From Promethearchaeota archaeon (GTDB lineage Archaea; Asgardarchaeota; Lokiarchaeia; Sigyniarchaeales; SOKP01), in assembly GCA_019058015.1 (NCBI GenBank), contig JAHLWH010000122.1, forward strand, positions 1-51,868: DNA of 51,868 nucleotides, written 5' to 3'. Of the stretch, positions 659 to 38,454 are shown in pieces. A program made the translations under genes and the position numbers. The notes below the pieces were generated by a model. It saw only the letters and a program-made list of their open reading frames with translations. It was not told the DNA's origin and did no database searches. How positions within the stretch are numbered: position 1 is the stretch's first letter; each line of letters opens with the position of its first letter.

Positions 659-2905
659 CTATAATTTTCCCCTCCAGATTAGATTATTATGGAATGTGAT
701 GTCAACATCAAGATCTTTCTCTTTTATTTCTACCATTTCTTTCTCTGATACCGGAAGTTCAATTTGATATGTTCCGTCTAATAAATCCTTGATTTTAATA
801 TCGAATTCTTTTTTCCCTACTTGTAGCTTCAATTCATAGCTATATCCCGGACCTAGCAATTGACCTTTTTTATTGCGAGGAGTGATATTAATAATCTTGC
901 CTTTCAGTTTGTCTGTTGAGGTTTCTATAAAATTAATTTTAGTTTGTTCGGGATCGGCTTTACCCGGTCCCACAATTAACGAAATCATATCTGTACGACA
1001 TATAGGACCGTTTTCTGGACTCTCATATCGAACTTTTATTTTGAAAGAATGCAATCCAGGTTGTTCCAGAGCTATTGGAATGAAAATTTCCTCCTTCTCA
1101 ATTTTGCATTCAAGATCTCCTCTTAGAAGAGAGAGATGTTTTGTATATGGTATTAAGTGTTTTTGGAAATGTGGATCAGAGGTCATAGCTTTAAGTTTCA
1201 GAATTAAAAGGTTCTTAGGAACTTTTTTTGTACTTATTTTTGATTTTTTCAATAATTCAAATGGTGAAACTTTATATTGAGCTAAAAGTTCAGGGAGTGG
1301 TACACGAAAATATTTCGTTTCTATCACAATCTCCTTAGGCATAATAAATACTGGTTTTTTCTTATTTAAAACAATAATTCTGATAGGTAATAAGTCTCCT
1401 ACTTCATAGAGTTTTTTCGGGAAATCAACTACGTGTTTAATCACTGTATCCTCCCCTATAACAAATGCATGATAATCAGCAGAAGTTCCAATTATCTCAC
1501 CACGAATAATCATACGCCACCCCCCTAGATACTCTAAACTTTCTCCATTTTGTCGTTTAGGTAAATAAATAGTTGCCATACAATGGTTTTCATATAGTCT
1601 CATCTCATTATGTAAATCTAAGAGAGTCCCATCAGGAGAGTACAACCAGAACATAAAATTACTCCTCTGTGATTTTTTCCAAGAAAGAATTACAGTTATT
1701 TTTCGGATAGATCTGTTAAGATAGAAGATCTCTGCTTTTTTATGCTCTTCTACAGATAAATTACTTGTGTTGTGATAGAGAATTGAGGGAGAGCCTCCAG
1801 CCATAATATTGCAGAGATCGATTAAATATAAAAAATCAAGGTCGGTTTCCGGGTCATTTGTTCCCTGATAAAAAGCACCTGTCTGGTTAGCTATCCCTTG
1901 TAGAAGAGTTTCATAATTTGCTGTAATACCAACACCAATGGTATGAACAGGAATATTATAGTTTGCAATATTATCTCCTGGATGTTCTGACACAATCTGA
2001 GAAGGATCTCCACACCAGTCATCACCATTTATGATTTCATAGTGGCCTGCTGGTACTTTTTTCACCAATGGATTTATATTTTGTATTCCGTCAGTGCATA
2101 ATATGACAAATGATTTCCGAGTAGGAGTACTAGGGGGTAAGGTATCAAATGCTGTCTGTAAACCCGCGCCCATAGCAGTACATGTACCTGTTACAAGGGC
2201 GTTAATCTTATCTTTTAGTCCATTTGTTATATCCCAATTAGCTTTAATTGGTAGTAATGTTTGATCTTCACTCACATCATCCGTAAACGAAATCAATCCC
2301 ATATTATCATCAATTTGTCCGTTTGTGTTTAAAAAGTTTCCGATTATTCTACAGGCTCGTTTCATCATTTCGAACTTCGAATCACCAGTTAAAGGCCAGT
2401 TCATACTGCCGGAGACATCCATAACCATTTCTAGATCTATAGGATCACGTATGTATATAGTATCCTTTAATAAACCTTCCAAAAAATCACGTCCAGGAAA
2501 ACCAAGAAATCTTTCTCTAATATGCATATTCCTATCAATGATAAAAGTATGGGGTACAACTCTATCATTAACAGGTATACCACCCATATACGAACTCCAA
2601 ATATCTTCGTTGTGGATAGCAGGGAAAGTAACAGTAACATCAAACTCCCCTGTTAACCATGTTTTAATGACAGATGTTGGAGTAGAATTTTCACGAACAA
2701 CCGCAACTATTTGAACACCATGACCAGAGTATGTATTCCATAAATTTACTAGACATTTTATTACATCTTCACAATCGGAATCATCATACTCAATAAAGGA
2801 AAGTAATATGATATCTCCTAAATGATCTCTTGTATCATATGTGATCATATCATGAATAAAATCATCTCCATCAAAATGGGGTGCAGGGTCACCAACTATT
2901 GGCAT
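659..2905 (-). CDS. Redoxin (TlpA/AhpC-like thioredoxin fold) fused to a VWA domain and C-terminal beta-sandwich domains
   Basis: N-terminus VGDPAPHF..GDIILLSF..GVQIVAV..PHTFIIDR is a redoxin signature. VWA MIDAS residues DVSGSM, TAMGAGL and ILCTDG are present. Confidence 0.75.
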   Translation of the reverse strand: MPIVGDPAPHFDGDDFIHDMITYDTRDHLGDIILLSFIEYDDSDCEDVIKCLVNLWNTYSGHGVQIVAVVRENSTPTSVIKTWLTGEFDVTVTFPAIHNEDIWSSYMGGIPVNDRVVPHTFIIDRNMHIRERFLGFPGRDFLEGLLKDTIYIRDPIDLEMVMDVSGSMNWPLTGDSKFEMMKRACRIIGNFLNTNGQIDDNMGLISFTDDVSEDQTLLPIKANWDITNGLKDKINALVTGTCTAMGAGLQTAFDTLPPSTPTRKSFVILCTDGIQNINPLVKKVPAGHYEIINGDDWCGDPSQIVSEHPGDNIANYNIPVHTIGVGITANYETLLQGIANQTGAFYQGTNDPETDLDFLYLIDLCNIMAGGSPSILYHNTSNLSVEEHKKAEIFYLNRSIRKITVILSWKKSQRSNFMFWLYSPDGTLLDLHNEMRLYENHCMATIYLPKRQNGESLEYLGGWRMIIRGEIIGTSADYHAFVIGEDTVIKHVVDFPKKLYEVGDLLPIRIIVLNKKKPVFIMPKEIVIETKYFRVPLPELLAQYKVSPFELLKKSKISTKKVPKNLLILKLKAMTSDPHFQKHLIPYTKHLSLLRGDLECKIEKEEIFIPIALEQPGLHSFKIKVRYESPENGPICRTDMISLIVGPGKADPEQTKINFIETSTDKLKGKIINITPRNKKGQLLGPGYSYELKLQVGKKEFDIKIKDLLDGTYQIELPVSEKEMVEIKEKDLDVDITFHNNLIWRGKL

Positions 2906-3003
2906 TTTAAATCATCTTGCTTTTTTTGTCGTTTTTACATAAATGTAATTTTACTACATTTAATATATGAATTTTATTTATTTTCGTTTTTCTTTTTTCC
3001 TAG

Positions 3004-3133
3004 CCACTTATTTGTTATTTATTGCACGATCTCCAATTATAGATGTCTTCTTGAAACCACTTATTTTATTATTTATTGCACGATCTCCAATTATAGATGT
3101 CTTCTTGAAACCACTTATTTTATTATTTATTGC
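3004..3133. repeat. 54-bp tandem repeat, about 2.4 copies, at the 3' end of the nuclease-like gene
   Basis: Unit ccacttattttattatttattgcacgatctccaattatagatgtcttcttgaaa occurs at 3004-3056 (53-bp variant), 3057-3110 and 3111-3133 (partial). It encodes repeats of AINNKISGFKKTSIIGDR. Confidence 0.95.
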
Positions 3134-4036
3134 TGAGTCTTTCAAATATTTTGTTATTGGTTGTTGAACCTTTTTATATTCTTTAGGTTCACAAGGTTCT
3201 TTAACAGCGCCGACAACTTCATGTAGGTCCTTTATTCCTTTATGATTGCTATTAAAATCAAAACAAGCGCGATCAAAATCAAAATATTGACCAGCAGGTC
3301 CTCTATAAATAACTAATGTACCTATAAGATCATACAAATCTCTAACTTTCCACTCTTTATATACCCAAAGACCATTCTCAGCTTTTACATAGAGAGAGAA
3401 AATAAAATGGTAAGCGTTCATTTTAATAGGTCTAGGTACTAAAATAGAAACATCAAAAACTTTATCACTATCTTTTATTTTACATCTATTGGATTTAATT
3501 TCTACATAGTAAATTTTCTTTTTGTATACAAATGCCGTATCAGGAAACTTTGTATCTTTAGAAGTTTTCCCAGAAGTATTTTTAAAATCAGTAGGTGGTC
3601 TTAATCCTTTACTTATCAATACTTCATTTACAATGGGTTCAAGTTTCTGACCTCTTTTTTTGGAATCAAGACTTTCATTAAACTTTTTCTTATCAAATTT
3701 CAAAGCAACTTCATTAAAAGTTTCTATTAATAATTTTTTAACATCGTTATCTATGTGGTAGTAGCGGAGAATTTTTTTTTTGACCTTTTCAGATTGTTTG
3801 ACCTCTTCTGTTTTTTCTGCTTTTTTTTTGAAGAATAGAAATTGATCAAAATTTAATTTAATAAATTTGTGATAAGGAAACTCTCGCAGCTTCCACATAT
3901 TTTTTTTTTGTTTATCTTCGTTTATAAATATATTACACTCAACCAAATCTTCCTTACAATCATCCAATGCCCATATATAATATTCTCCATTATACATAAG
4001 TTCTAACTCTAATCTATTTGGATTTTTATCGTTCAT
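3008..4036 (-). CDS. PD-(D/E)XK restriction-endonuclease-like protein
   Basis: Motif FPDTAFVYKKKIYYVEIKS, preceded by a helix with GQKLEPIVNE. No methyltransferase nearby. Confidence 0.55.
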   Translation of the reverse strand: MNDKNPNRLELELMYNGEYYIWALDDCKEDLVECNIFINEDKQKKNMWKLREFPYHKFIKLNFDQFLFFKKKAEKTEEVKQSEKVKKKILRYYHIDNDVKKLLIETFNEVALKFDKKKFNESLDSKKRGQKLEPIVNEVLISKGLRPPTDFKNTSGKTSKDTKFPDTAFVYKKKIYYVEIKSNRCKIKDSDKVFDVSILVPRPIKMNAYHFIFSLYVKAENGLWVYKEWKVRDLYDLIGTLVIYRGPAGQYFDFDRACFDFNSNHKGIKDLHEVVGAVKEPCEPKEYKKVQQPITKYLKDSAINNKISGFKKTSIIGDRAINNKISGFKKTSIIGDRAINNK

Positions 4037-4208
4037 AAGTATAATACATTTGACATTCTTTTTATAAAAAATTAAATATAATTTGTGTTATTTGATTAAT
4101 TTAAAATTCTAGCATCGGTTGAAAGAACCTGGTGTAAATTCTTTATCTTTCCACTATTTCCTTACTTGGAATTTCTATTTCTTTATTTATTTTATAATCA
4201 TAGAGTAT

Positions 4209-6944
4209 TTATTTCTCGGTCAAATTCTCTTTATTGGAAGACTCCTTTATTCTCTCTTGTTTATCTTTGGGTCCCTTTAGTGTTTTACTTAATATTTTAC
4301 TAGCAAGAGCTGAACTCATCTGGACGATTACTTTTTCTGAATCTTGCCAATTAAGGTCATCTAATTTCTCTTGGGATAATAGTGCTTTAAGTCTCTCATT
4401 TTCAAGTCTCAATTTCTCTTTTTCTTCTAATGCTTTTAAGACATCTATCTTTCTATGTGCTAATTTGAATGATTCTAGTGCTGTTCCAGTACCAGGTTCA
4501 ATGTCAATGATTAGATTTTGAGTGTCTAATAAAAATCTCCGAGAGCGTTCTTTTCTCAATAAATATTCTGGATAAATTTTTTTAAATAAATCATCATTAT
4601 TGAGAAATTCATCTAATTCTTCGTCACCTGACTCACTAGCAGCAGTGTATTGAGTTCTTAATTCGGGTACATAATCAATCATATCTATTCTATCATCGGT
4701 ATTAATATCTTCAGGAAGTAAATTTAAATTGTCTTGTGTAAAATGCTTTAGTTCAGGATCCATAAGAATTGGTTTTGCTCCCATATTAGGGTAATAAAGA
4801 TAGGGCGTCTTCATGATTTGTAGCATTGTAAATAACTCTGAACGAATAAATTCTGGTTTCAAGTAGTATATTGCATAATTACCATAATATCCAATTGGTC
4901 CGGCAGGATTTATTAGATCTGTTATATCAACGCAAGTGTCCCAATCTCCTATAAATTCTCCGTCTAGATCAAATAATGTCTCTTCTAATTCATCAGTTTC
5001 ATATTCTCGTACTTGTTCTAGTAAATTATCTATTGTTTTTCCTTCATCTATAGTTTCTCCAGCTTCCTCTCTACTTGTCTCACCTTCTTCTTCGCCACCT
5101 TCATCATTTAATGGATATTCAACTCCACCAAAGGTTCCATGAAAATCCCATTCGACAGGTACTTGTATTTTTAATTTTTTATATCTCAAGATCCTTTGTT
5201 GAGAGTCTTCTTGGGACCATATAGCTCTACAATAATGAAGAATGTTATCACGGATATGTTGATAAAGACGTTCACGTTTCACCTCAAGAAGCTCAATTTC
5301 TCGTTCAGTTTCGTATTTTTTTTGGAGAGCTTCTTGGTAATTCCTTTGTGCTTCTTGAATCATATCCACACCAGATAAGGATAGAGTGGTTAATTTTTCA
5401 GAGAATCTCTCAAGAAATCCTTCCTTCCCTTCTGAACCTATAATATCTCCTAACTTATCTTCCAAAGTGTTTTTAACTTCTGAATAATCGATTGGCCTTG
5501 GAACTTGACTGATAGATGTTAATGCATCCCGGAATGAATCATCTAAGAGAACTTTTGCTATGATCCAATCGTATCTTTTCACCCATTCAAAATTTACCTC
5601 AAATGAGTAAGGAATGGGTTCAGCAATCAAAATTACGTTTTGTATTTCTGCAACGCTAGTAAAAATCTCATACTGCCGCTGTAACTTGCTGTAAACATAT
5701 GTTATAGGGATTTCCTCATTGGGATTCACTATTTCAGATGCCGTTTCTACTTCAAAAGTAGACTCAGATTCTGTGCTAACTACAGTTTTGATTTCAGTCC
5801 TTATCTTGCTAGCAGTTTTCTGCATTGATTCAGAGAGATGAGTACTTGCCTTTTTTGATCTTTCCTCTGCCTCACCATGGGCTCCTGCAGAAGCACTTGC
5901 TGAAAATACAGAGAAATTTACTGATGCTTCTGCTTCTGCATTCCATCCCTGCGTGTTTGAAGCTTCATTGACAATCTCACTTGAATCCTTTGTTGTATCA
6001 GTTACCTCAGAGGATTCTTCAATGCTTTTAAGATGTTCTGCTGTCTTGGTAACTTTTATGCGACGTACTATTTTTGTTGATACCTTTTCCACTTGTTTTG
6101 GACCAAGTGGAATTGTTTTAACAATTTCACCTCGTTGATTTCCCAATGATCTCCATTCTTGGCGATATACAATCCTAAGACCTAAATTCCAACTATACGG
6201 TAAAAATGGATCAAATGTGAAAGGTGGGATGACTGTTTTCTCTCTTTTTCCTTTTTCAGCTTCCTTTTCTCTTTGCCTTTCCAATAGCTGCTCCAAATGT
6301 TCTTTCCAGTGATTCACTGTTAACCTAGCGATTACAGCCCATCGATTTTTAAGTTGATCATCAGTTTTTCTTTGCATATTAATAATTATCCAAAAAAGAA
6401 AAAAGACAAAATTTTGATAAACCGTAAAAAAGTATAGACAGGCATTTGTATTTTTTGGAACAATTGGTAGCCAATTGATAAATTCTTGTTCAGTTATAAT
6501 ATCAATCTCTTGTGCCAAACCATATAAGTAAAGAAGATTTTCATATGCTTCTATTTCAAGTAGGAGAGTGGAGATTAATCGTTCAATAATGTATTTTCGT
6601 ATGTCGTTATTAATAGGTGTAAGAAACCACCATCTAGAATTTTTTCTTATTAATTCATCTAATCTTGCTCTTAAATCTTGTAAAAATAATCTTTCATTAG
6701 GATCAATGATTGTTTCACTAATAAAAAGATCATCAATAGCGGCTTCAGAGGGCTCCAAAACCTCGGGTTCTAATACATAAAGATATTCTGAAAAGTCGTA
6801 AAAAGCAACATTTTCCAAATTAGCAGTACTTATTCCTAAAAAATTGCTTGTCTTTTTTCCTTCAAAGATACCATTAGCAAGGCTATTAATAAGGTGATCT
6901 CTATCATTCTGATTTCCAAGAGAATTATTTTCTTTACTTTTCAC
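4209..6944 (-). CDS. Large hypothetical protein with a Ser/Thr/Glu-rich segment and amphipathic hairpin (putative beta-pore-forming toxin-like)
   Basis: 911-aa ORF with GTG start overlapping the upstream stop (GTGA). Contains QEWRSLGNQRGEIVKTIPLGP..WNAEAEASVNFSVFSASASAGAHG..NPNEEIPITYVYSKLQRQY. The CDS is secure; the function is inferred. Confidence 0.55.
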   Translation of the reverse strand: MKSKENNSLGNQNDRDHLINSLANGIFEGKKTSNFLGISTANLENVAFYDFSEYLYVLEPEVLEPSEAAIDDLFISETIIDPNERLFLQDLRARLDELIRKNSRWWFLTPINNDIRKYIIERLISTLLLEIEAYENLLYLYGLAQEIDIITEQEFINWLPIVPKNTNACLYFFTVYQNFVFFLFWIIINMQRKTDDQLKNRWAVIARLTVNHWKEHLEQLLERQREKEAEKGKREKTVIPPFTFDPFLPYSWNLGLRIVYRQEWRSLGNQRGEIVKTIPLGPKQVEKVSTKIVRRIKVTKTAEHLKSIEESSEVTDTTKDSSEIVNEASNTQGWNAEAEASVNFSVFSASASAGAHGEAEERSKKASTHLSESMQKTASKIRTEIKTVVSTESESTFEVETASEIVNPNEEIPITYVYSKLQRQYEIFTSVAEIQNVILIAEPIPYSFEVNFEWVKRYDWIIAKVLLDDSFRDALTSISQVPRPIDYSEVKNTLEDKLGDIIGSEGKEGFLERFSEKLTTLSLSGVDMIQEAQRNYQEALQKKYETEREIELLEVKRERLYQHIRDNILHYCRAIWSQEDSQQRILRYKKLKIQVPVEWDFHGTFGGVEYPLNDEGGEEEGETSREEAGETIDEGKTIDNLLEQVREYETDELEETLFDLDGEFIGDWDTCVDITDLINPAGPIGYYGNYAIYYLKPEFIRSELFTMLQIMKTPYLYYPNMGAKPILMDPELKHFTQDNLNLLPEDINTDDRIDMIDYVPELRTQYTAASESGDEELDEFLNNDDLFKKIYPEYLLRKERSRRFLLDTQNLIIDIEPGTGTALESFKLAHRKIDVLKALEEKEKLRLENERLKALLSQEKLDDLNWQDSEKVIVQMSSALASKILSKTLKGPKDKQERIKESSNKENLTEK

Positions 6945-11060: not shown

Positions 11061-12218
11061 CTATACACCTCCATCATTTCCAAATATAAGCACACAGTTT
11101 CCTTGGGAGCATATTCCATTCATTCCATTTGCTAAACCAATTTTAGCGTTGGGGATCTGTCTTTTATCTGCTTTACCCATTAATTGTAGAGCAATTTCTG
11201 CCACGCGAATTAAACCATTTGCCATGGTTGGATTACTTGATAGAACACCTCCCGAAGGATTAACGGGTATATTTCCGGTCATTTCTGTTTCACCATTTTC
11301 AATAAATTTTCCACCTTCACCTTTCCCACAGAATCCTAATGCTTCGTAACTCATTAATTCATGATATGAAAACAAATCATAAACTTCTGCTACATCAATT
11401 TCTCTGATTGGATCAGTAATTCCAGCCATTTTATAAGCTTCTTTAGCAGCTAATTCTAGTCCAATTAGATCCGTCATTGTTCTATGCCCTAAATAATAAG
11501 CATCAGTACAACTACCGTATCCCATAAGCCAAACAGGTGAGTCTGTGAATTTTTTAGCAATCTCTTCTTTTGTTAAGAGCATTGCAACTGCACCATCAGA
11601 GAGTGGTGGTAAATCAAGTTCCTTTAAAGGATATGCTATCATTGGAGAGAAAAGGATGTCCTCAATCGTAACTGCTTCTTGTAGATGTGCATATGGGTTA
11701 TTAAGTGCATTTTTTCGATTTTTTATAACAACCTTGGCTGCTTGCTCCTCTGTAATTCCATACTTATTCACATACATATTAGCCATTAAACCAGCAGTAG
11801 ATATTTGATCTAATCCTAAAGCTCTTTGATAAAAAGGATCAAAAATGGAGTTATTTATAAGATATTGATCTCCTTCAGAGCATTTGCAATGGGATACAAC
11901 CATTACTGTATCATAGTATTCTGATAAAATTCTCATAGCTCCATATATATATGCAAAGGCTCCATCTCCTGAAACTCTTGATTCTGATTTTCCAATAGAT
12001 CCCACTGCATCTTGGATTGCCATATCAGCGATCGTTCTTCCATCGTTAAAATCATTGGAACTAGTAATTACACATCCTATATCGTCATTTGTTATTCCCA
12101 AATCATTATAAAGCTTCTTAACAACCTCAAAAACAAGTTCTGAATATGTCTGATCGATTTTATCTGCTTCATATTTTGTTTGGGCTGTGGCAACAATGGC
12201 AACATTATGTTTTGGCAT
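11061..12218 (-). CDS. ltp4: Thiolase-fold protein, Ltp4-like
   Basis: LYNDLGITNDDIG..SSNDFNDGR..ESRVSGDGAFA..VNPSGG. No catalytic Cys; paired with the Ltp3-like gene. Confidence 0.7.
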   Translation of the reverse strand: MPKHNVAIVATAQTKYEADKIDQTYSELVFEVVKKLYNDLGITNDDIGCVITSSNDFNDGRTIADMAIQDAVGSIGKSESRVSGDGAFAYIYGAMRILSEYYDTVMVVSHCKCSEGDQYLINNSIFDPFYQRALGLDQISTAGLMANMYVNKYGITEEQAAKVVIKNRKNALNNPYAHLQEAVTIEDILFSPMIAYPLKELDLPPLSDGAVAMLLTKEEIAKKFTDSPVWLMGYGSCTDAYYLGHRTMTDLIGLELAAKEAYKMAGITDPIREIDVAEVYDLFSYHELMSYEALGFCGKGEGGKFIENGETEMTGNIPVNPSGGVLSSNPTMANGLIRVAEIALQLMGKADKRQIPNAKIGLANGMNGICSQGNCVLIFGNDGGV

Positions 12219-12469
12219 AATTTTTCTTTTTCTCTTTTTTATTATTATATTATAAACAGTGATTAGATAAGAGTTAAAAAATTTATAAAGTTTTCAACTA
12301 AAGCATAATGACTATTAAACGTTTTTAACATAACATCATCTTTAGAAGAAAAACAATCTAAATTTAGCCATTTATTCTATTATGGATGTTCTTAAAAAAA
12401 TGAAAAATATAAGATATGAAATATAAATTAGAAATAAGGAATTATGGATAAAATTTAGGTATATCTAAA

Positions 12470-13291
12470 ATGAGTGAATTTGATTTTCAGGATATCCTTT
12501 ATGAGAAGGAAGATAATGGTATTTGCACAATTACATTCAACAGACCTGAAAGAAGAAATGCAGTAACTTATTTAACCTTTTATGAAATTGGGCTGGTTCT
12601 AGAAGATATGGAAAAAGATAAAAATGCTAAAGTTTTAATAATTACTGGAAATCCAGAAGGGAGAGCCTTTTCATCAGGGGGTTATTTCAAGCCATCAATA
12701 TTGAATAATATAAGAGATGAAATTAAGCAAGAAATTGATTTAATGGATATCGCTCAAAAAAAAATCTGCATGAAATTTTGGAAATTTTATAAGCCTGTTA
12801 TTGTAGCCATTAATGGTTTGGCTATAGGCGGGGGAATAACAATGCCCTTATCAGGTGCAGATCTAATTTTTATGGCTGAAGATGCTTGGCTAGGATTTTA
12901 TTTTGGAAAGAGAGCCATTATACCAGAATTTGGTTCCTCTTTTATTTTGCCATTTTATGTAGGGTTTCAAAAAGCAAAAGAAATTGTATATTTTGGCGAA
13001 AAAATATATGCTCAAGAAGCTTATGAACTTGGACTTGTAAATAAAGTCTTGCCTAAGGACGAACTAATTCCATACGCTCGAGAACAAGCTTTACGGTTGA
13101 TTCCTCCTAAGGGTCCAAGTTTGTCAATAAAATTAATGAAAAAAACCATGCATGCTTATTTCCTTGAAATCATGGATAAAACTTTAGATTTGGAAAATAG
13201 AGGTCTTAGAAAAGCTTTTACTTCATACGATTTTAGAGAATCAATGAACGCACTTAAGGAAAAAAGAGACCCAGTATTTAAAGGGAAATAA
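12470..13291 (+). CDS. Enoyl-CoA hydratase/isomerase (crotonase) family protein
   Basis: ITFNRPERRNA, AFSSGG, KPVIVAINGLAIGGG, IPEFGSS, AQEAYELGLVNKV, EKRDPVFKGK. Confidence 0.93.
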   Translation: MSEFDFQDILYEKEDNGICTITFNRPERRNAVTYLTFYEIGLVLEDMEKDKNAKVLIITGNPEGRAFSSGGYFKPSILNNIRDEIKQEIDLMDIAQKKICMKFWKFYKPVIVAINGLAIGGGITMPLSGADLIFMAEDAWLGFYFGKRAIIPEFGSSFILPFYVGFQKAKEIVYFGEKIYAQEAYELGLVNKVLPKDELIPYAREQALRLIPPKGPSLSIKLMKKTMHAYFLEIMDKTLDLENRGLRKAFTSYDFRESMNALKEKRDPVFKGK

Positions 13292-13334
13292 ATTAATTCA
13301 ATCGATTTTTCAAAATTTTTATTTCTTATTATTA
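13136..13334 (+). repeat. Direct repeat copy 1: last 52 codons of the crotonase gene plus ~43 bp of 3' flank
   Basis: 13136-13291 aligns ungapped to 16472-16627 with 12 mismatches in 156 bp (manual count). Similarity continues past the stop codon. Confidence 0.95.
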
Positions 13335-13567
13335 CATTCAATTAAAATAATTAAAATTTTAGTTGAAATTATAATATCGATGTAAGAGACTTTTTTCAAT
13401 TCATACTTGAAGATTTACATGAAATAGAAAAAAAATAGAATTAAAAGTTTTTCCTCAGACATTTAAAAATTTCTATTAATTATCGCAGACTGGGGTTTTT
13501 TATTTATAAGGCAATATTAATATTTAAGATAAATGGTTAAATTTATTATATTCAAGGAGATATAGAA

Positions 13568-14632
13568 ATGAACATTAAATTAGATAAAATCAAGCATCCT
13601 TGGTACGATCCTAGAGAGGATGTTGACGACAAATATATTGAGGAATTAGCGGAAAGCATCAAAAAAGATGGCTTATTAAATCCTATAATAGTTAAAAGTA
13701 CAGAAGATGGAATGTACGAAATCATAGCAGGAGGTCATCGATTAAGAGCGGTTAAAAAATTGGAATGGACTGAAATTGAAGCTAAACTAATGGATATTGA
13801 GGAATCTGAAGCATCGATTCTCGCTATTAAAACGAATATACTACAAAAGAATTTGACAGACATTGAAGAGGGTAAGGCAATTAAAAGAATAATTGAAAAA
13901 TTCAGTTATACTCAAAGCGAGATTGCAGATAAATTAGGGAAGAGTCCAAGTTGGGTTAGTAATAGGTTAGCTTTGATTCTCAATGTTTCGCAAAGTGTTC
14001 AAAACGCCTTAAAGGAAGAGAAGATATCAACTTCTCATGCAGTACTTTTATCGAAACTCAGTAAGAGAGATCAAGATAATTTCTTAAAATATATTATATC
14101 GAAAAAATTGAATATAAACGATGCTAGAGATGCGTTGAAAAAATATGAAAATAAGACCATATACACCATAGGGTATCAAGGGAAAGATTTAGATACATTT
14201 ATTGAAATATTAAAAGATAATAAAATCGACCTACTTATCGATATAAGAGAATCTGGTAAGAGTACTAGAAAACCAGTATTCAATTCAGAAATTTTAAAGA
14301 GAGAATTTAGCAAAACTAACATAGAATACATTCATAAACAAAAATTAGGAGTAATTTACGAAAGCAGAGTCCCTTACATTAAAGGATATATTTCACACGA
14401 TTGTTTTAAAGGTTGGTATGAATGGCATTTAGACGATATCGACTTTAATATCGAAGAATTTGTGAATTTTCTCAAAAATAATGGAACATGCTGTTTAATG
14501 TGTATGGAAGAATTCTCTAAACCAAAAAAACAACAAAAATACTATTGCCATAGAGATTTTTTGGTAGAAAAGATTTTAAATTTTAAGTCAGAAGATCCAT
14601 TATATTCCTTTGACGAGAGAATAGACTTGTAG
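13568..14632 (+). CDS. ParB/Spo0J (CTPase domain plus HTH) fused to a C-terminal DUF488 domain
   Basis: ParB: ELAESIKKDGLLNPIIV..YEIIAGGHRLRA and HTH TQSEIADKLGKSPSWVSNRL. DUF488: IYTIGYQG..LIDIR..YIHKQKLG..CLMCME..CHR. Confidence 0.85.
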   Translation: MNIKLDKIKHPWYDPREDVDDKYIEELAESIKKDGLLNPIIVKSTEDGMYEIIAGGHRLRAVKKLEWTEIEAKLMDIEESEASILAIKTNILQKNLTDIEEGKAIKRIIEKFSYTQSEIADKLGKSPSWVSNRLALILNVSQSVQNALKEEKISTSHAVLLSKLSKRDQDNFLKYIISKKLNINDARDALKKYENKTIYTIGYQGKDLDTFIEILKDNKIDLLIDIRESGKSTRKPVFNSEILKREFSKTNIEYIHKQKLGVIYESRVPYIKGYISHDCFKGWYEWHLDDIDFNIEEFVNFLKNNGTCCLMCMEEFSKPKKQQKYYCHRDFLVEKILNFKSEDPLYSFDERIDL

Positions 14633-14722
14633 GATGCCAAAATAATTATTAAATTTATACACAGTCAGTTTTTATAAACATTAATTACTTCTTATTATAA
14701 AGATTGTATTTAGGGGATTTTA

Positions 14723-15547
14723 ATGAGTTGGGAAAAAAGAGAAATTCTTTTAATAGCTAAAACTTATCCAGAAAGAAGTCAAAAATACGGAAATACAGTT
14801 TGTACTGCGGGGATAATGGAAGATACAAATGAATGGGTTCGAGTTTATCCCATTAATTTAAATGTTTATCTTCGTAAAAAATTAAAGAAATTTGTTCGAT
14901 TTAAAGCAGAGATAAGAAAAAACAAAAGTGAAATGATAAAAAGAAAAGAATCATATAAAATTCGAGAGAAATCAATAAAAATAACCGACGATAGTCTAGT
15001 AGATCCGAAAGTAAAAGGTGTCTGGGAAGAAAGAACTAAAATATTAGAAAAAAGTCTTTCCGAATCTATGGAATTTTTAAAAAATCAATTTGAAATTAAA
15101 AGAATGTCATTAGGGATAATCAAGCCACATCAAAAATCAATAAAATTTTTAATAGAAAAACCCGTTGATAATGTAGAAATCGATGTTATTAAAGAAGTCC
15201 AATTAAATCTTTTTGGAGAACAAGTAAGAAAAGTAGATAAAATAGAACATGCATTTTCTTACCGATATAAATGCAATATAGAAAATTGTAAAGGTCACAA
15301 AATGATATGTATCGACTGGGAATTATTAGAATCATTTAGAAAGTGGAGAAAAACATACAAAACTCCACAAAAATTGGAATTTGCATTAATTAATAGATAT
15401 AACGACTGGATGATTAAAGAACGAGATCTATATCTTGTTGTTGGCACAATCTGGCGATATAAAACTTGGATTATAATTGGCCTATTTTATCCTCCAAAAA
15501 AAGGACAAAAAACGCAGAAAAAACTTAGTTCATTTTTTAAAAAATAG
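14723..15547 (+). CDS. Conserved hypothetical protein of the DUF488-associated 'KTYP..S.KY..TVCTAG..W.R.YP' type (dual-OB-like)
   Basis: N-terminus LLIAKTYPERSQKYGNTVCTAG..EWVRVYPI; C-terminus YRYKC..C..H..IDWE..DLYLVVGT..WIIIGLFYPP. Confidence 0.65.
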   Translation: MSWEKREILLIAKTYPERSQKYGNTVCTAGIMEDTNEWVRVYPINLNVYLRKKLKKFVRFKAEIRKNKSEMIKRKESYKIREKSIKITDDSLVDPKVKGVWEERTKILEKSLSESMEFLKNQFEIKRMSLGIIKPHQKSIKFLIEKPVDNVEIDVIKEVQLNLFGEQVRKVDKIEHAFSYRYKCNIENCKGHKMICIDWELLESFRKWRKTYKTPQKLEFALINRYNDWMIKERDLYLVVGTIWRYKTWIIIGLFYPPKKGQKTQKKLSSFFKK

Positions 15548-15589
15548 AAATGTGAGATGATAAAATAATAATGGGGAAGAATTTATATT

Positions 15590-16390
15590 ATGACCAACCG
15601 ATGTCTTAACTTAAATTATCGAAATCTAAGAAATGGGCAGAGATTATATTATTCTTTTAACCACGATGAAGCTTTACTCTCTTGGTATTATGAGAAAAAT
15701 AAATTAAATAAAGGTAATTTTTTCCTTATAACAATAGATGCCCACATAGATTGGACTGATCTGGCTAAAGAAGAATTAGTAGAACTAAAAAAATTTAAAG
15801 AACGACAAAAAAATCTTGATAATAATAATGAGGATTTAAGTGAATCAGATGACCCACACCTACAAAACTTATCTGAATTAAGGAAAATTATTGAAAATTC
15901 ATTTAGAGGGGATAATGTCTCATTTATTGTGGCTTCAATGGAATTAGGATTAATAGATGATGTATTAATTATATCTCCTAATATAAATGATCTTGAAATC
16001 CCAGAAACTTATGAAGATATGCAAGGAATTCAGCACAAAATTTATCATATACATTCTATTAGAAGTTTATGGTATCCATATGGGAGAGCAGTATTGAATG
16101 ATGATTTCAACAAAAGATGTCTGGAGATTCGGAATCATCTATATTCGAATCCATATATTGTAGACTTTGATTTAGATTATTTTACTTATTCTCGTGATAA
16201 TAAGGAATTTGTTATTAATGAAAAACACTTTAAAATAATTTTTAACGATTCAAATTTTTATAATTTATTATCTAAGGCAAGTGTTATCACAATTGCATTA
16301 GAGCCAGGTTGTTGTGGTGGTGTTCAAAATAGTGCGATTATTTTTCACAAAATAACCAGTTCTATTTCAAATCGATTAGGAAGTTTGTAA
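15590..16390 (+). CDS. UPF0489 family protein (arginase/deacetylase-like metallohydrolase fold)
   Basis: NHDEALLSW, TIDAHIDW, VDFDLDYF, ITIALEPGCCGG. Confidence 0.75.
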   Translation: MTNRCLNLNYRNLRNGQRLYYSFNHDEALLSWYYEKNKLNKGNFFLITIDAHIDWTDLAKEELVELKKFKERQKNLDNNNEDLSESDDPHLQNLSELRKIIENSFRGDNVSFIVASMELGLIDDVLIISPNINDLEIPETYEDMQGIQHKIYHIHSIRSLWYPYGRAVLNDDFNKRCLEIRNHLYSNPYIVDFDLDYFTYSRDNKEFVINEKHFKIIFNDSNFYNLLSKASVITIALEPGCCGGVQNSAIIFHKITSSISNRLGSL

Positions 16391-16471
16391 TTTTTTTTTG
16401 AAATTTTTTTTAAAAAATATTACTCACCCTTCTTAGATAAAGACCAGAATATTGTAAATTTTAATAAATCA

Positions 16472-16670
16472 ATGAAAAAAAACATGCATTCTTATATCCT
16501 TGAGATCCTAGAAAAAACTTTAGATTGGGAAAATAGAGGTCTTAGAAAAGCTTTTACTTCATATGATTTTAGAGAATCGATGAATGCACTTAAGGAAAAA
16601 AGAGACCCTGTATTTAAAGGGAAATAAATTAATTTAATTGAATTTCTAAAATCTTAATTTCTAATTATCA
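16472..16670 (+). pseudogene. Direct repeat copy 2: orphan crotonase 3' fragment (51 aa plus stop at 16627) and flank
   Basis: MKKNMHSYILEILEKTLDWENRGLRKAFTSYDFRESMNALKEKRDPVFKGK*, versus MKKTMHAYFLEIMDKTLDLENRG... in the intact gene. Confidence 0.92.
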
Positions 16671-16803
16671 AAATCATTTAATATAAATGAAATAATCCTC
16701 TAATTTTAAAAAAAAAATTCACCTATTTGATATTTTAAAAAAAAATATTAAAACGAGAATAAATTAATTATGACAAAAAATATATTACTGGTAATAAAAA
16801 AAA

Positions 16804-17214
16804 ATGACAAAGATTAAAATTTTATCGGAAGAATGGGTTGAAGCTTTTGGTAAAGCAATCAATGCGAATCCAAATTATAAGCCATCAGCGCTTACTTGGG
16901 AAGGGGATATGCTTCTCTTAATTGAACCTAGTGGGAAATTAGATCATGAAGTAAGGATCTTTATTGGCCTTTACCACGGTGAATGTACAGGAACTAGACT
17001 ATTAAAAGAAGGAGAAGAGGTTGACACTCCATATATTCTATCTGGTCCTTATGATAATTTTGTGAGAGTTATGAATAAAGAATTTGACCCTATTCAAGGA
17101 GTTATGTCTGGTAAGTTAAAACTGAGCGGTGATATGGCAAAATTGATGAGACATGTTCAAGCAGCTAAAGAAATTGTGAATAGTCTTCTAACGTTCGAAA
17201 CAGAATTTTTATAA
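16804..17214 (+). CDS. SCP2 sterol/lipid-binding domain protein
   Basis: SEEWVEAF..IN.NPNY..WEGD..GLYHGEC..DPIQGVMSGKLKLSGDMAKLMR. Confidence 0.88.
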   Translation: MTKIKILSEEWVEAFGKAINANPNYKPSALTWEGDMLLLIEPSGKLDHEVRIFIGLYHGECTGTRLLKEGEEVDTPYILSGPYDNFVRVMNKEFDPIQGVMSGKLKLSGDMAKLMRHVQAAKEIVNSLLTFETEFL

Positions 17215-17286
17215 AAAGCAAGAGAATTTTCATTTAGTTTTTTTTTTAATTTAATAGAACAATAAAAAACATCATAGGAAAAAAAA

Positions 17287-18486
17287 ATGTGGTACTTTTA
17301 TAGTCCTAATATTATATATGGTGAGGATGCACTAAATTTCTTAGAAAATATTCCGGGAGATAAATGTTTTATTGTCACTGATAAAGTAATGGAGGAGTTG
17401 GGTTATTTAAAAATTTTAACAGATAAACTGGAAAAATACGGAAAACAGTATAATGTATATAATGAAATACTCCCTAATCCTCGAGAAACTCATGTAGCAG
17501 AAGCAAGAGAAATGTGCAATTCTTACACTCCTGATTTAATTCTTGCTTTAGGAGGAGGTTCGGTTATGGATGCTGCAAAAATGGTTTGGTGTTTCTATGA
17601 ATTTCCAGAGCTTTCACTTGATGATATCCATCCATTTAGACCCGACCTTCATAATATGGGCAAAAAAGCAAAATTAGTAGCCATACCAACTACTTCAGGA
17701 ACTGGAGCAGAAACAACATACGCTGCAATTATATCAAAATTTGAAAATGATATCTGGAAAAAATTCCTATATGCTCATAAAGGAATAGTTCCTACATATG
17801 CTATAGTAGATCCAATATTCCCCGTAGGAATGCCTTCTAATTTAACTGCTGATACAGGTTTTGATGCATTAGCCCATGCGATTGAAGGAATGGGCTCTGA
17901 GTGGAGAAATGAGTTCAGTGATGCATTGGGGGTTAAAGCTATTGAATTAGTTTTTAAATATCTGCCAATTGCCATTAAAGAAGGTAAGAATATGGAAGCT
18001 AGAGATTACATGCATCAAGCAGCAACTATGGCTGGATTAGCTTTTGGTAATGGAAATGTTCATATAGGACATGGAATGGGTCATAGTTTGGGAGCAATCT
18101 TTCATATTCCTCATGGAAGGGCAGTTGGTGTTGTGCTTAGTTATGTTACACAATTCTGTTTAAATAATCCTGATGAAAAAGATAAATCTATAGAAATTTA
18201 TGCAAAATTAGCGAAACAATTAGGATGGGCAAACTGGGATGAAGATAATAAAAAGGCAGCCTTTACTGTAATCGAGAAAATCAAAGAGCTCCAAAAAGAG
18301 GTCGGAATTCCAAATAAGATTCAAGATTTAGGAATTTCTCGCGAAGATTTTGATAAGAATTTAGATATGCTAATAACTTTATGTTATGAAGATGCAACTA
18401 TTGGAATGGTCCCAAGAAGCGTAAATCCAGAGATATTTAAAAATTTATTTACATATGCTTATGACGGGAAAAATATCGATTTTTAA
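17287..18486 (+). CDS. Iron-containing alcohol dehydrogenase
   Basis: ALGGGSVMDAAK, IPTTSGTGAE, DALAHAIE, HGMGHSLG..HIPHG. Confidence 0.93.
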   Translation: MWYFYSPNIIYGEDALNFLENIPGDKCFIVTDKVMEELGYLKILTDKLEKYGKQYNVYNEILPNPRETHVAEAREMCNSYTPDLILALGGGSVMDAAKMVWCFYEFPELSLDDIHPFRPDLHNMGKKAKLVAIPTTSGTGAETTYAAIISKFENDIWKKFLYAHKGIVPTYAIVDPIFPVGMPSNLTADTGFDALAHAIEGMGSEWRNEFSDALGVKAIELVFKYLPIAIKEGKNMEARDYMHQAATMAGLAFGNGNVHIGHGMGHSLGAIFHIPHGRAVGVVLSYVTQFCLNNPDEKDKSIEIYAKLAKQLGWANWDEDNKKAAFTVIEKIKELQKEVGIPNKIQDLGISREDFDKNLDMLITLCYEDATIGMVPRSVNPEIFKNLFTYAYDGKNIDF

Positions 18487-31295: not shown

Positions 31296-33014
31296 ATGAG
31301 CGAAAAAAAATTTTGGAAAAAATCATGGGATGATGGAATTACTGATTTTGACCCAGAATTGTGGGAAACAACCTATATTGACGCAATTAGACCAACCTTT
31401 GAAAATTTTCTAAATAAAATGGCTTTTGAATTTTTAGGCATAGAAATAACATTTGGAGAATTGGATAAATATTCTAATCAATTTGCAAATTTTTTAATCG
31501 ATTCTGGCTTTCAAAAAGGAGATATCGTTGGTCATAATTTACCAAATACACCACAATTTATGATTGCTTGGCTTGGTACATTAAAAGTAGGTTGTGTTTT
31601 CTCTGGAGTATCACCTTTACTTTCATCCGAACAAATGCAATATCAATTAAGCGATTTAGGCATAGGAGGAAAAAAAGTTGGGATAGTTACGCTCGATGCG
31701 ATCTTCGAGCATCGGCTTAAAGAAATTGCCCCAAAATTACCGCAACTAGAATTAATTATAACTACAAATATAGCTGACTTTTTACCGAAATTTAAACAGG
31801 TCCTAGGAAAATTATTAAAAAAAATTCCTACTGGAAAAGTAATTCCACTTGAAGGAAAAAAAGTAGTTAATTTTATGGACATTTTGAAAAATTACTCTAC
31901 AGAGTTACCTGATGTAGAATTAACTCCAGATGATTTGGCATACATAATATATACTGGTGGAACTACCGGACCTCCGAAAGGGGCAATGTTAACTCATCGT
32001 AGTGCGGTTGCTGATTTAACTATTGTTATGAGATGGCTCAACTGGGAGGAGAATAGAGGTGGTGGCACTGCTCTTTCAGGATTTCCCTTATTTCATATAG
32101 CAGGGCTATTCTTCTGCGAGAATTGTGTATTTCTAGGCTGGTCACAAATTTTAGTTCCTGATCCACGTGATACAAATCTTATTGTAAAAAAAATTGAAAA
32201 ATACAAACCAACAGCCTTGGTTAATGTTCCATCTTTGTTCCAGATGTTGATAAAACATCCAAAATTTAAGAAATTGGATCATTCTGAATTAGATGTCTGT
32301 ATTTCTTCAGCATCTCCTTTTCCACTTGAATCTAAAAAAGAATTAGAAAGTATTGTTGGTGAAGGTAAATTACTAGAAGTTTACGGCATGACTGAGACTT
32401 CTCCGCTTTCAGTTATGAACCCTTATAGAGGAACAAGGAAGTTAGGTTCTATTGGCCTTCCACTGCCAAATTGTGATATAAAATTAGTAGATCCAGTTAC
32501 GGGTAAAGAAGTTGGAATTGGGGAGCCGGGGGAAATCTGTGTAAAAGGAGCTATGGTTATGACGGGTTATTTAAACAAACCAGAAGAAACTAAAATGGCT
32601 ATAGATGGCGATGGATATATGCATAGTGGCGATGTGGGGATTTTTGATAAAGAAGGATACTTAAGGATTGTAGATCGCACAAAAGACATGATTATTGTAG
32701 GTGGTTTCAAAGTATTTTCGACAAAATTGGAAGATGTGTTGACCGCCCATCCTGCAATTGAAATGATAGCTACTATTGGCATTCCAAATCCTGACAGACC
32801 AGGCTCAGAACTGGTAAAAGCTTACATACAAATTGACCCTGATTATTCATATGATGGTAATGAGGAGGCATTGAAGGAAGATATAATTAAATTTGCAAAA
32901 GAGAAATGCGCACCTTATGAAGTCCCCAAAATTATTGAATTTGCTGAAGAATTACCGCTTACTCTCGTTGGAAAAGTTGATAAGAAACGATTGCGTAAAG
33001 AAGCAAGAGGATAA
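31296..33014 (+). CDS. fadD: Long-chain acyl-CoA synthetase
   Basis: YTGGTTGPPKG, YGMTETSP, HSGD, GKVDKK. Confidence 0.92.
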   Translation: MSEKKFWKKSWDDGITDFDPELWETTYIDAIRPTFENFLNKMAFEFLGIEITFGELDKYSNQFANFLIDSGFQKGDIVGHNLPNTPQFMIAWLGTLKVGCVFSGVSPLLSSEQMQYQLSDLGIGGKKVGIVTLDAIFEHRLKEIAPKLPQLELIITTNIADFLPKFKQVLGKLLKKIPTGKVIPLEGKKVVNFMDILKNYSTELPDVELTPDDLAYIIYTGGTTGPPKGAMLTHRSAVADLTIVMRWLNWEENRGGGTALSGFPLFHIAGLFFCENCVFLGWSQILVPDPRDTNLIVKKIEKYKPTALVNVPSLFQMLIKHPKFKKLDHSELDVCISSASPFPLESKKELESIVGEGKLLEVYGMTETSPLSVMNPYRGTRKLGSIGLPLPNCDIKLVDPVTGKEVGIGEPGEICVKGAMVMTGYLNKPEETKMAIDGDGYMHSGDVGIFDKEGYLRIVDRTKDMIIVGGFKVFSTKLEDVLTAHPAIEMIATIGIPNPDRPGSELVKAYIQIDPDYSYDGNEEALKEDIIKFAKEKCAPYEVPKIIEFAEELPLTLVGKVDKKRLRKEARG

Positions 33015-33348
33015 AAAGTAAAAAATTAAATTATTTTTTGAGAATTCCTTTTTTTCTCTTTTTACCATAGCTATAATTATTTTTATATAACTAAAATTTG
33101 ATATATTAAAATCTTTTTTTTTTTAATTTTAAAATTGACGGAAGGGGAAGGGTTTTTTCTTTAATAATATATCAGAAAAACTATTTTCGGAACATTTATG
33201 CTAAAGACATTGAGATTTTTATATTTTTAATGAAATATACCGTGAAAAATTAGTCCAAATATCACAAATATAAAGATTTATAAAATAATTTTGTTCAATA
33301 ATATTATCCAAAAAATTTAATAAAAAATATTATACAAAAGTGTTAAAG

Positions 33349-35073: not shown

Positions 35074-35151
35074 AAAATATAAAATTTAATTATTTTTTAA
35101 AAATTCTTTTTTTTTATTATTACCGAATTTTAATCAAAAATTGGTTTCACT

Positions 35152-36321: not shown

Positions 36322-36391
36322 TAAATTCTTTTAAAAATTTTTTTAAAAAAAATTAAAAATTATTAATAGAAAATTCAATTTAGAGTTTATT

Positions 36392-38437: not shown

Positions 38438-38454
38438 CTAAATTTTAGATTTAT

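Follow-up and report, generated by a model that had tools for sequence, protein, structure and literature searches.

A strain-variable gene islet between two copies of a crotonase gene end in a Promethearchaeota genome: a likely scar of homology-facilitated illegitimate recombination

Introduction

How does a small block of foreign genes come to lie between two copies of the 3' end of a metabolic gene, with no integrase beside it? The question is raised by a locus in a Promethearchaeota metagenome-assembled genome (MAG; 283 contigs, 3.8 Mb), from a Loki-type Asgard archaeon. We refer to the 51,868-nt stretch that was analysed as "the window"; all positions are those of the window. In a preliminary description of this DNA, the duplicated gene end was read as the trace of a circular element that had integrated by a single crossover, using the coding sequence (CDS) of the gene as its attachment site. 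Here, we describe the islet and its repeats, related loci with and without the islet, and the same layout elsewhere in the genome, and we discuss how such a structure could arise.

The islet and its bracketing repeat

The features of the locus, from left to right, are as follows.

12470..13291, + strand: enoyl-CoA hydratase (crotonase, ECH_1) anchor gene; intact, 273 aa; Pfam ECH_1 3.5e-48, residues 14-272; orthologous locus in G004 and G001
13130..13357, + strand: left repeat copy; final 162 nt of the crotonase CDS and the 66 nt of spacer that follow; gene-attached
13358..13466, no strand: AT-rich islet-specific stretch; absent from the G002 cassette (G002:C241 homology begins at 13467)
13467..13567, + strand: conserved non-coding cassette leader; 87-88% identity to G002:C241:336-440
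13568..14632, + strand: gene A; 354 aa; ParB N-terminal CTPase fold, ParB HTH and DUF488
14723..15547, + strand: gene B; 274 aa; conserved Cys/His residues; predicted tandem OB fold
15590..16390, + strand: gene 3; 266 aa; UPF0489-like lead only
16404..16461, no strand: cassette right end; 77.6% identity to L025:2461-2518; common to the G002 copy at another locus
16466..16693, + strand: right repeat copy; orphaned, decaying crotonase 3' end plus native downstream spacer
16804..17214, + strand: SCP2 gene, native right flank; Pfam SCP2; synteny with G004 and G001

A repeat search and alignment define the two copies as a 228-nt direct repeat with 88% identity and a spacing of 3336 nt, the only such pair reported for the window by the repeat search. 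The match to the second copy is far beyond chance (BLAST E-value 3.4e-77). The preliminary description had counted 12 mismatches over the last 156 bp of the crotonase CDS (13136-13291), and our recount gives exactly that number; the full coding part of the repeat (13130-13291, 162 nt) has 13 differences. Similarity does continue into the downstream flank, as had also been noted, for ~66 nt (13292-13357) rather than the ~43 bp first given. The longest identical blocks shared by the two copies are 36, 25, and 23 nt. Because in-frame stop codons precede the right copy, it has no gene body upstream; on its other side, it runs through the native spacer, continuous with SCP2. The arrangement is therefore the direct-repeat geometry originally proposed, in which the host crotonase gene is intact and a copy of its end lies downstream.

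Both islet junctions are present in Logan contigs of three sequencing runs (X1, X3, and X5) from two studies, and an independent metagenome contig, L140, covers 13615-16798 with 95.6% identity. The observation of the repeat and the islet is thus confirmed. Immediately upstream of the repeat, the X1 contig and the window disagree at 13060, 13072, and 13102.

Cargo genes

Three ORFs lie between the repeat copies. The preliminary description had reported no integrase or transposase among them, and profile searches of the three proteins likewise returned no recombinase or transposase family, the predicted fold of gene B being OB-like. No recombinase was found in or beside the islet; the genome-wide search, made for tyrosine recombinases with PF00589, gave two matches, one of them full length (318 aa).

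Gene A has a ParB N-terminal domain followed by an HTH and a DUF488 domain (Pfam ParB_N 2.2e-19, HTH_ParB 1.2e-21, DUF488 4.3e-13). Residues 3-192 match the Noc structure 7ng0 in the PDB (2.9e-41), and the DUF488 part, but no other, matches PADLOC PDC-M19A (1e-20). Gene A may encode a CTP-switch ParB/HTH/DUF488 protein that binds CTP. Gene B matches PADLOC PDC-M19B nearly end to end (4.7e-47), as well as phrog_25907 (2.4e-41). With its AF2 model (pLDDT 78), the best Foldseek matches are to dual-OB proteins of the RPA and HIN-200 kinds, with low TM values of 0.2-0.34, and the modelled product is a probable dual-OB DNA-binding protein. Gene 3 has an Atlas score of 0.94 to UPF0489 clusters, with a Pfam UPF0489 match below cut-off (E 0.036). 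Adjacent homologues of M19A and M19B are therefore present, the M19A match being to the DUF488 part only. The cargo combines a UPF0489-like gene with a PDC-M19-like pair, for which family membership and context suggest a candidate role in defence.

The G+C content of the cargo is 0.276, versus 0.325-0.357. Another genome of the genus, G002, carries genes A and B at 81% identity at a different locus (G002:C241). Gene 3 is absent from that cassette and present in L140 at 93.6%. Homology to G002 ends at 16461, 4 nt before the right repeat copy, and by this measure, the cassette appears to be a unit defined by its breakpoints; its leader is probably the promoter region. One contig in X1 and X3 joins the sequence from 13343 onward to other sequence.

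The cassette is found in at least three contexts. In G022, which belongs to another genus, genes A and B lie between two copies of the 3' end of a GH3 gene (512 nt, 86.7%). Repeats bracket the cassette in the window and in 5 of the 70 loci examined, namely, G022 and four loci of other phyla (L060, L076, L080, and L086).

Empty sites and population variability

If the islet is an insertion, relatives could be expected to have crotonase followed directly by SCP2, as the preliminary description predicted. This is the arrangement in G004 and G001, the two closest genomes, both of the same genus as the window genome. Each has a single copy of the repeated segment, and alignments from the left and right of the islet overlap by 228 and 221 nt, respectively. 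Two full tandem crotonase genes at the site, which would have spoken for simple decay of a paralog, are absent from the congeneric genomes. The islet occurs in two of the five genomes of the genus (G000 and G002, the G002 copy being at another locus). Both forms occur in X5, a run from one sediment metagenome, where contigs of the empty type have a depth of ~150 and islet contigs ~10. We conclude that the islet is a real, strain-variable insertion. The suggestion that it is a population-variable module is borne out in its first part, by the genus comparison and by X5; the second part, use of the CDS as an attachment site, is not the best reading.

Two observations bear on whether the islet can leave. 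Deletion between the repeats would also yield the exact empty sites of G004 and G001, such that these sites are compatible with loss as well as gain. In X5, the contig with the repeat core (depth 164.7) abuts flank contigs (157 and 143) and an islet contig (10.5), a graph topology compatible with either a circle or an integrated minority. The 88% identical repeats could recombine to excise the islet; among the contigs of four runs, no circle junction, 3336-nt skip, or back-joint was seen.

Origin of the two copies

Comparison of the left (L) and right (R) copies with the single copies of G004 and G001 gives the following site patterns: L-only 11, R-only 10, G001-only 12, G004-only 3, and 1 site that groups L and R against G004 and G001. 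Since these patterns do not unite L with R, the repeat is not a recent in-place duplication. Of the 11 changes private to the left copy, 7 fall in the 65-nt spacer and 4 in the CDS, where 3 are synonymous; of the 10 changes private to the right copy, 7 are in the former CDS. Over the last 33 codons, the copies differ at five sites, all of them synonymous, as would be expected of two alleles that had both been functional during their divergence.

L140 is informative about the earlier state of the orphan. Its orphan copy has the same islet junction as the window, is 95.2% identical to the single copy of G004, and has the host state at the 9-10 sites that are private to the window's orphan copy; no site groups the window and L140 orphan copies against the hosts. 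On the evidence of L140, the orphan copy started out host-like from end to end and is the resident allele. The locus thus has the layout of an intact gene, foreign cargo, and an orphan 3' fragment continuous with native downstream DNA.

The left copy probably arrived with the incoming DNA. Left and right copies are about equally similar to G004 (91.2% and 92.1%, respectively). Sliding identity to G004 reveals no clear foreign tract in the crotonase gene, with values of 93-95% in the repeat versus 91-99% upstream. The right-hand junction, placed by the end of G002 homology, is at ~16462-16466, in A/T-rich sequence where microhomology is ambiguous. No donor genome with crotonase followed by the cassette, and without the orphan, was found.

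The same layout elsewhere in the genome

A genome-wide scan for repeat pairs of at least 90 nt, with at least 79% identity and a spacing of 1-8 kb, gave 33 pairs with identities from 79% to 99.3%. In 10 of these, namely, the window islet and nine other places, exactly one copy is on the 3' end of a gene, giving the same succession of intact gene, cargo, and orphan. The cargo of the sister islets is unrelated to that in the window: TA modules, a glycyl-radical enzyme set, and oxidoreductases. The ten also include C10, which is nested and complex, C240, whose geometry is odd, and C139 and C110.

Among the 10 cases, comparison with relatives is clear for three besides the window. In C228, the best resolved, identity to G001 and G002 is 96-98% for the orphan and 85-90% for the entire 750-nt SDR gene, with a jump to 96-100% at the 5' end of the gene. 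By these identities, the orphan is native, and the foreign tract, which starts at a homologous crossover, comprises the cargo and a whole foreign allele, much longer than the repeat. In C264, the cargo is present without the orphan in G001 and together with it in G000, and the site is empty in G004. In C272, the sites of G004 and G001 are empty, and identity to these two genomes is higher for the orphan (96.5% and 95.9%, respectively) than for the gene-attached copy (94.8% and 94.2%). The layout is most likely an ordinary recombination scar that is common in this genome, rather than a dedicated attachment site.

Possible mechanisms

We consider it reasonably probable that the repeat is the scar of homology-facilitated illegitimate recombination (HFIR), also described as 3'-end (C-terminal) displacement, rather than a pair of attachment sites. 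This reading builds on the observed geometry, the empty sites, the orphan's host-like original state, and the scars of the same type elsewhere in the genome. We postulate a related strain as the donor, in whose DNA the cassette stood behind a crotonase allele. A homologous crossover within the 3' end of the crotonase gene, or just upstream of it, would have taken in one end of this DNA; the other, which had no homology, would have been joined illegitimately at ~16462-16466, the joining chemistry being our supposition. The gene would now end in the incoming allele, which is the left copy, and the resident 3' end, displaced 3.3 kb downstream, would have become the decaying orphan, which is the right copy. 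The insertion is older than the split of the window strain from the L140 strain. Since then, the islet may have been spread or removed by ordinary homologous recombination, either in its flanks or from one copy to the other.

The main alternative is Campbell-type integration, in which a circle bearing its own 228-nt crotonase end entered by a single crossover, made by a recombinase acting in trans or by RadA, and could leave again as a 3336-nt circle. The direct repeats and precise empty sites fit this model, as do the occurrence of the cassette in several contexts and the topology around the X5 repeat core. In addition, resemblance to the host is mainly in the 5' part for the left copy and in the 3' part for the right copy. 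The model nevertheless predicts that the 5' part of the right copy is derived from the element, whereas the ancestral right copy was host-like throughout. The observed site pattern would also result if the single crossover had taken place at the far left edge of the homology carried by the element. Beyond this, the G002 cassette has no strong crotonase homology and stops just short of the orphan; a single full-length tyrosine recombinase would have to serve at least 10 different targets; the foreign tract of the resolved sister islet spans a whole gene beyond the repeat, which is not predicted; and the contigs of the four runs hold neither skip nor back-joint. With the unrelated cargo of the sister islets, these points mean that a circular element using the CDS as its attachment site is not the best reading of the locus, and we regard it as unlikely.

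In-place duplication, by the filling-in of a staggered cut of ~228 nt or by repair that copied the target, followed by drift of the copies, appears quite unlikely. It would account for the near-equal numbers of private changes, for their concentration where each copy is unconstrained, and for the range of repeat identities across the genome, as scars of different ages; an old duplication with drift and unequal constraint could also give 11 versus 10 private changes. Yet only one site groups the copies against the relatives, the 12% divergence between the copies exceeds that of either copy from G004 (~8-9%) although G004 is empty, the differences in the last 33 codons are exclusively synonymous, there is no transposase, and the sister islets C228 and C264 carry an allele of foreign origin instead of a copy of their own. 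A further possibility is that a second, tandem crotonase gene decayed when cargo overwrote its 5' part; tandem crotonase homologues do exist in other genera of the family (G016:C125, G020:C19, G009:C47, and G013:C45). These match the query at ~70-74%, compared with 88% between the copies here; only one gene, at a precise single-copy site, is present in the two closest genomes, the right copy carries the native spacer running into SCP2, and the cargo is lower in G+C and found elsewhere in G002. This explanation is close to refuted. An assembly artefact in a mixed-strain MAG might be suspected from the 283 contigs and the differences in the X1 contig, but it is scarcely credible, given that Logan contigs from two studies and an independent metagenome contig span both junctions and that another MAG, G022, has the same layout.

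Implications

The islet and its sister scars are testable examples of the way in which small gene blocks come and go, without integrases, in an uncultured Asgard archaeon. Scars of the favoured kind record both donor and recipient alleles and can therefore serve to quantify gene flow among Asgard lineages, a matter relevant to the growth of their genomes. They also call for caution, in that the duplication of a gene end does not always mark an attachment site. As a speculation that we hold to be doubtful, integrase-free, homology-anchored end displacement could be a main route by which Loki-type Asgard archaea gain small defence, toxin-antitoxin, and metabolic islets, with conserved gene 3' ends as de facto landing sites and homeologous repeats that let islets drop out by RadA recombination. 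Such a route would account for 10-14 scars in a 3.8-Mb genome, and also for a single sediment sample in which sites with and without the islet are mixed. Bolder still, and less probable, is the idea that the ParB-DUF488/dual-OB cassette promotes its own insertion.

Comparison with known systems

The cargo is a natural, strain-variable example of a ParB-CTPase/DUF488 protein paired with a predicted dual-OB protein. Residues 2-196 of gene A correspond to the canonical Noc/ParB CTPase and HTH. In contrast to partition ParB, DUF488 replaces the C-terminal dimerisation domain, and there is no ParA partner or parS evidence. An archaeal ParB-CTPase/HTH/DUF488 fusion is reported to bind CTP (10.1101/2025.10.10.680097); it may or may not be a member of the same family as gene A. 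The pair resembles PADLOC PDC-M19 (a DUF488 protein plus M19B) in that gene B corresponds to M19B and the DUF488 part of gene A to M19A. It differs in that the N-terminal two thirds of gene A, the ParB CTPase and HTH, are outside the M19A profile, and in that the islet adds a third gene. The A/B pairing is kept in six Asgard loci, with the order A-B in the window and G002 and B-A in the other Asgard loci, and probably also in Gordonia phages, where gp43 adjoins gp44 in the lysogeny module. A literature search found no paper that names PDC-M19, and its defence activity is that of a candidate.

Integrase-borne genomic islands and integrase-less, att-flanked elements, the latter known as CIME-type, share with the islet the direct repeats of a gene 3' end, the intact target gene, and the empty sites in relatives. 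The islet differs from them in three respects: (i) it has no recombinase within it or adjoining it, in a genome with one full tyrosine recombinase; (ii) its repeats are 88% alike, without a long identical core (longest block, 36 nt); (iii) a hybrid attR is expected of such elements, whereas the orphan copy was host-like throughout at first, a crossover at the extreme edge being possible.

The closest parallel to our preferred reading is HFIR or C-terminal displacement at rhs, CDI, and T6SS effector loci. Displacement of the HFIR type is proposed for Vibrio T6SS arrays in PMC5361080, which cites cases from rhs and CDI loci and experimental work in Acinetobacter, Pseudomonas, and Streptococcus. 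Among the matches listed in a literature search for HFIR and archaea, the titles and abstract openings describe no such scars in an archaeal genome. Like those loci, the islet combines an intact gene, with what would be an incoming end, new cargo, and an orphaned old 3' end, and it would call for one homologous anchor and one non-homologous joint, without a dedicated recombinase. Unlike them, it is anchored on an ordinary metabolic gene and would have a near-identical allele, not a new toxin domain, as its incoming end; moreover, its host is an Asgard archaeon, a group in which DNA uptake and end joining are unstudied, and at least 10 scars occur in a single 3.8-Mb genome.

Structure of the islet

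The 3′ end of a crotonase (ECH_1) gene is present twice in the window. Repeat search, alignment, and BLAST all place a copy of positions 13130–13357 at 16466–16693, with 88% identity over 228 nt, a spacing of 3336 nt, and an E-value of 3.4e-77. The preliminary description had claimed 12 mismatches within 13136–13291, and a recount of the aligned copies gives exactly that number. Similarity extends ~66 nt past the crotonase stop codon, and the longest identical blocks shared by the copies are 36, 25, and 23 nt. The intact ECH_1 gene (273 aa) ends in the left copy. The right copy, which we refer to as the “orphan”, has stop codons in frame immediately upstream and lacks a gene body. The copies bracket three ORFs, with a G+C content of 0.276, as against 0.325–0.357 in the adjoining genes:

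13568–14632: gene A, ParB N-terminal CTPase fold, ParB HTH, and DUF488
14723–15547: gene B, PDC-M19B by PADLOC (4.7e-47)
15590–16390: gene 3, UPF0489 as a lead only

The left and right junctions are crossed by Logan contigs from three sequencing runs (X1, X3, and X5, representing two studies), together with an independent metagenome contig, L140, that covers 13615–16798; the islet is therefore not an assembly artefact. DGR-like mutagenic copying was also rejected: the left and right copies do not differ specifically at adenines, and a reverse transcriptase is lacking. Neither RNA genes nor tRNA targets turned up, whether by ARAGORN across the window or by Rfam across 12000–17500.

Just 5′ of the repeat, at 13060, 13072, and 13102, runs X5, X8, and X1, the last probably the source sample, differ from the window, while X3 matches it; recombination may have left a mosaic here, where the crossover is presumed. 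In X1 and X3, one contig links 13343 onward to unrelated upstream sequence that was not found in G000, the assembly containing the window. The break at 13343 indicates that, in these samples, the left part of the cassette has a second context as well. Elsewhere in the window, two tandem paralogous gene pairs (31310–35124 and 36379–40453; 68.6% and 77.9% identity over ~1.8 and 2.0 kb) are ordinary tandem duplicates, outside the islet finding.

Cargo genes

Residues 3–192 of the gene A product match Noc structures (2.9e-41). A 2025 preprint (10.1101/2025.10.10.680097) reports CTP binding by an archaeal fusion of the ParB-CTPase/HTH/DUF488 type. A PADLOC match to PDC-M19A (1e-20) is confined to the DUF488 part of A, and the DUF488 papers among those listed state no function. 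Gene B also matches phrog_25907. Its sequence gave no meaningful match to PDB chains. An AF2 model (pLDDT 78) used as a Foldseek query returned, at low TM-scores of 0.19–0.34, proteins with tandem OB folds, RPA and HIN-200 among them. A phage homologue of B weakly matches DuOB (E 0.002), and an Atlas score of 0.86 is a further lead in that direction. Given the low TM-scores, and with the weak DuOB matches agreeing, we treat a dual-OB fold for gene B as a lead from modelling. A literature search returned no paper naming PDC-M19, or DuOB in the sense used here.

None of the three cargo proteins resembles a recombinase. Within gene 3, at 15797–15874, contigs of X1, X3, and X5 (depth 4.5–7.9) drop 76 nt and gain 7 other letters; the net loss of 69 nt yields an in-frame, shorter allele of this UPF0489-like gene.

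Empty and occupied sites

If the islet is an insertion, related genomes should include sites at which crotonase is followed directly by the native right flank, SCP2. This prediction was borne out in two congeners, G004 and G001, where the left-flank and right-flank alignments share 228 and 221 nt, respectively, meaning that each genome has a single copy of the segment. Decay of a paralog was rejected on the same grounds: tandem crotonases do occur in other genera, but these two congeners carry a single crotonase gene and an exact empty site. G004 and G001 may have lost the islet between the repeats or may never have had it. Islet DNA was matched in 10 of the 41 genomes searched, G000 included, and most of A and B was matched only in a third congener, G002 (81%), at another locus that lacks gene 3.

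Runs containing the stretch derive from marine sediment, cold-seep, and subsurface metagenomes. In X5, the flank contigs have a depth of 143–165, the islet contig (13264–16540) has a depth of 10.5, and a repeat-core contig with a depth of 164.7 abuts both, contig depth not being equivalent to cell share and minor-strain flanks perhaps having been dropped. Hence both topologies, occupied and empty, are present in one sample, as expected from the earlier proposal of a population-variable module. Neither a 3336-nt skip nor a back-joint is listed in four runs; these are contigs only, which drop rare variants, so this is not evidence of absence.

Origin of the two copies

The preliminary description attributed the islet to a circular element that carried its own copy of the crotonase 3′ end, integrated by a single crossover, and could be excised as a 3336-nt circle. 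Several observations oppose an element-borne attachment site. L140 has the same islet-to-orphan junction (95.6% identity overall), and its orphan is 95.2% identical to the single copy in G004. Where the window's orphan is private, the L140 orphan has the host state, and this extends to the 5′ part, which a Campbell event would have drawn from the element. Relative to G004 and G001, the left and right copies have only one derived site in common, with 11 private changes on the left, 10 on the right, and 12 in the separate species G001. The last 33 codons contain five differences between the copies, all synonymous; a dN/dS-type test is suggestive for these codons only, there being seven amino-acid changes in 12 differing codons overall. 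Homology between the G002 cassette and the window stops at 16461, 4 nt short of the orphan, a position that probably marks a breakpoint rather than a shared att arm. Finally, a PF00589 search of the genome found one full tyrosine recombinase.

The best account, by analogy and from the orphan-copy comparison, is homology-anchored illegitimate recombination, i.e., displacement of the gene's 3′ end. Incoming DNA would recombine within the crotonase end and bring the cassette with it; its other end would be joined without homology at ~16462–16466, leaving the resident gene end stranded as the orphan. Sliding identity along crotonase has no clear step that would delimit a foreign tract, and no donor genome for the islet was found. 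Two other histories are less probable: a single crossover at the extreme edge of element-borne homology would give the same islet, and an old in-place duplication could have given the two copies.

Similar layouts elsewhere in the genome

A self-comparison of G000 identified 33 repeat pairs with a length of 90 nt or more, an identity of 79% or more, and a spacing of 1–8 kb. In 10, including that of the window, exactly one copy lies on a gene 3′ end; in four, both copies lie on gene ends; and in 19, neither does. Cargo is unrelated between cases, ranging from VapBC and MNT-HEPN modules to a glycyl-radical enzyme with its activase and a transporter, and oxidoreductases.

On contig C228, G001 and G002 are empty, and the orphan fragment is 96–98% identical to both. 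The attached SDR gene is 85–90% identical over the whole gene, jumping to 96–100% at the 5′ end. This pattern indicates that the foreign tract comprises the cargo and an entire foreign allele, brought in through a single homologous crossover and a single illegitimate joint. For C264, G004 is empty, G001 has the cargo without the orphan, and G000 has both. At C272, the site is empty in G004 and G001 and occupied in G002; the empty-site copy is slightly more similar to the orphan than to the gene-attached copy. C10 is a nested insertion hot spot (locus L112, G000:C10:13100-21800): in locus coordinates, G001 lacks 2258–5352, G004 lacks only 2242–3376 (an MNT-HepT pair and a repeat copy), and G002 is fully occupied. 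C240 has an odd geometry, and comparisons of C110 and C139 with relatives gave no clear result. On C110, ~355 nt between MazE-like and MNT-like genes (L115:5892-6249) recur at multiple sites in G004 and G002 (74–91% identity); the stretch is a small dispersed repeat or else a small gene that is conserved.

Relatives of the cassette

A metagenome scan with protein A returned a single locus. The lysogeny module of Gordonia phage Nymphadora has a homologue of B immediately after the annotated immunity repressor (L144:2033-3837, gp44-gp43). A family about as long as gp44, phrog_14939, is matched by the DUF488 part of A. Together, this position and match suggest that the pair may be a prophage-expressed module.

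In G022, from another genus, A and B lie between two copies of a GH3 gene 3′ end (512 nt, 86.7%); the empty-site comparison was uninformative, its sole congener, G012, being ~70% identical with different synteny. Ahead of the cassette in G002 (contig C241, L025:1-291) stands the 3′ end of a 262-aa PLD-like gene, copied at 92% together with 79 nt of spacer, the full gene being on another contig (C143, L109:4733-5023). This left junction is of the same kind as that of the window, with the right side lost at the contig end.

An Altiarchaeota MAG (L057:8894-12664) carries the entire DUF488 and B cassette twice in tandem (1841 nt, 86.7%, spacing 1932). Short direct repeats (62–141 nt, 77–92%) surround DUF488 and B cassettes at four phyla-distant loci among the 70 examined (L080, L076, L060, and L086, from Planctomycetota, Coriobacteriia, and an archaeon); the left copy in L076 lies within the 3′ part of a Type ISP restriction-modification gene.

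Comparison with known systems

Two points stand out: how many probable displacement scars a single Asgard genome contains, and a ParB-DUF488/dual-OB cassette that varies between strains, dual-OB being a lead. Among the papers listed by a literature search, judged by title and opening of the abstract, none describes such scars in archaeal genomes. Homology-anchored illegitimate recombination has been described in transformable bacteria, and it has been invoked for rhs, CDI, and T6SS arrays (PMC5361080). By analogy, the islet would resemble these arrays in combining a homologous anchor with a non-homologous joint, leaving the old gene end stranded.
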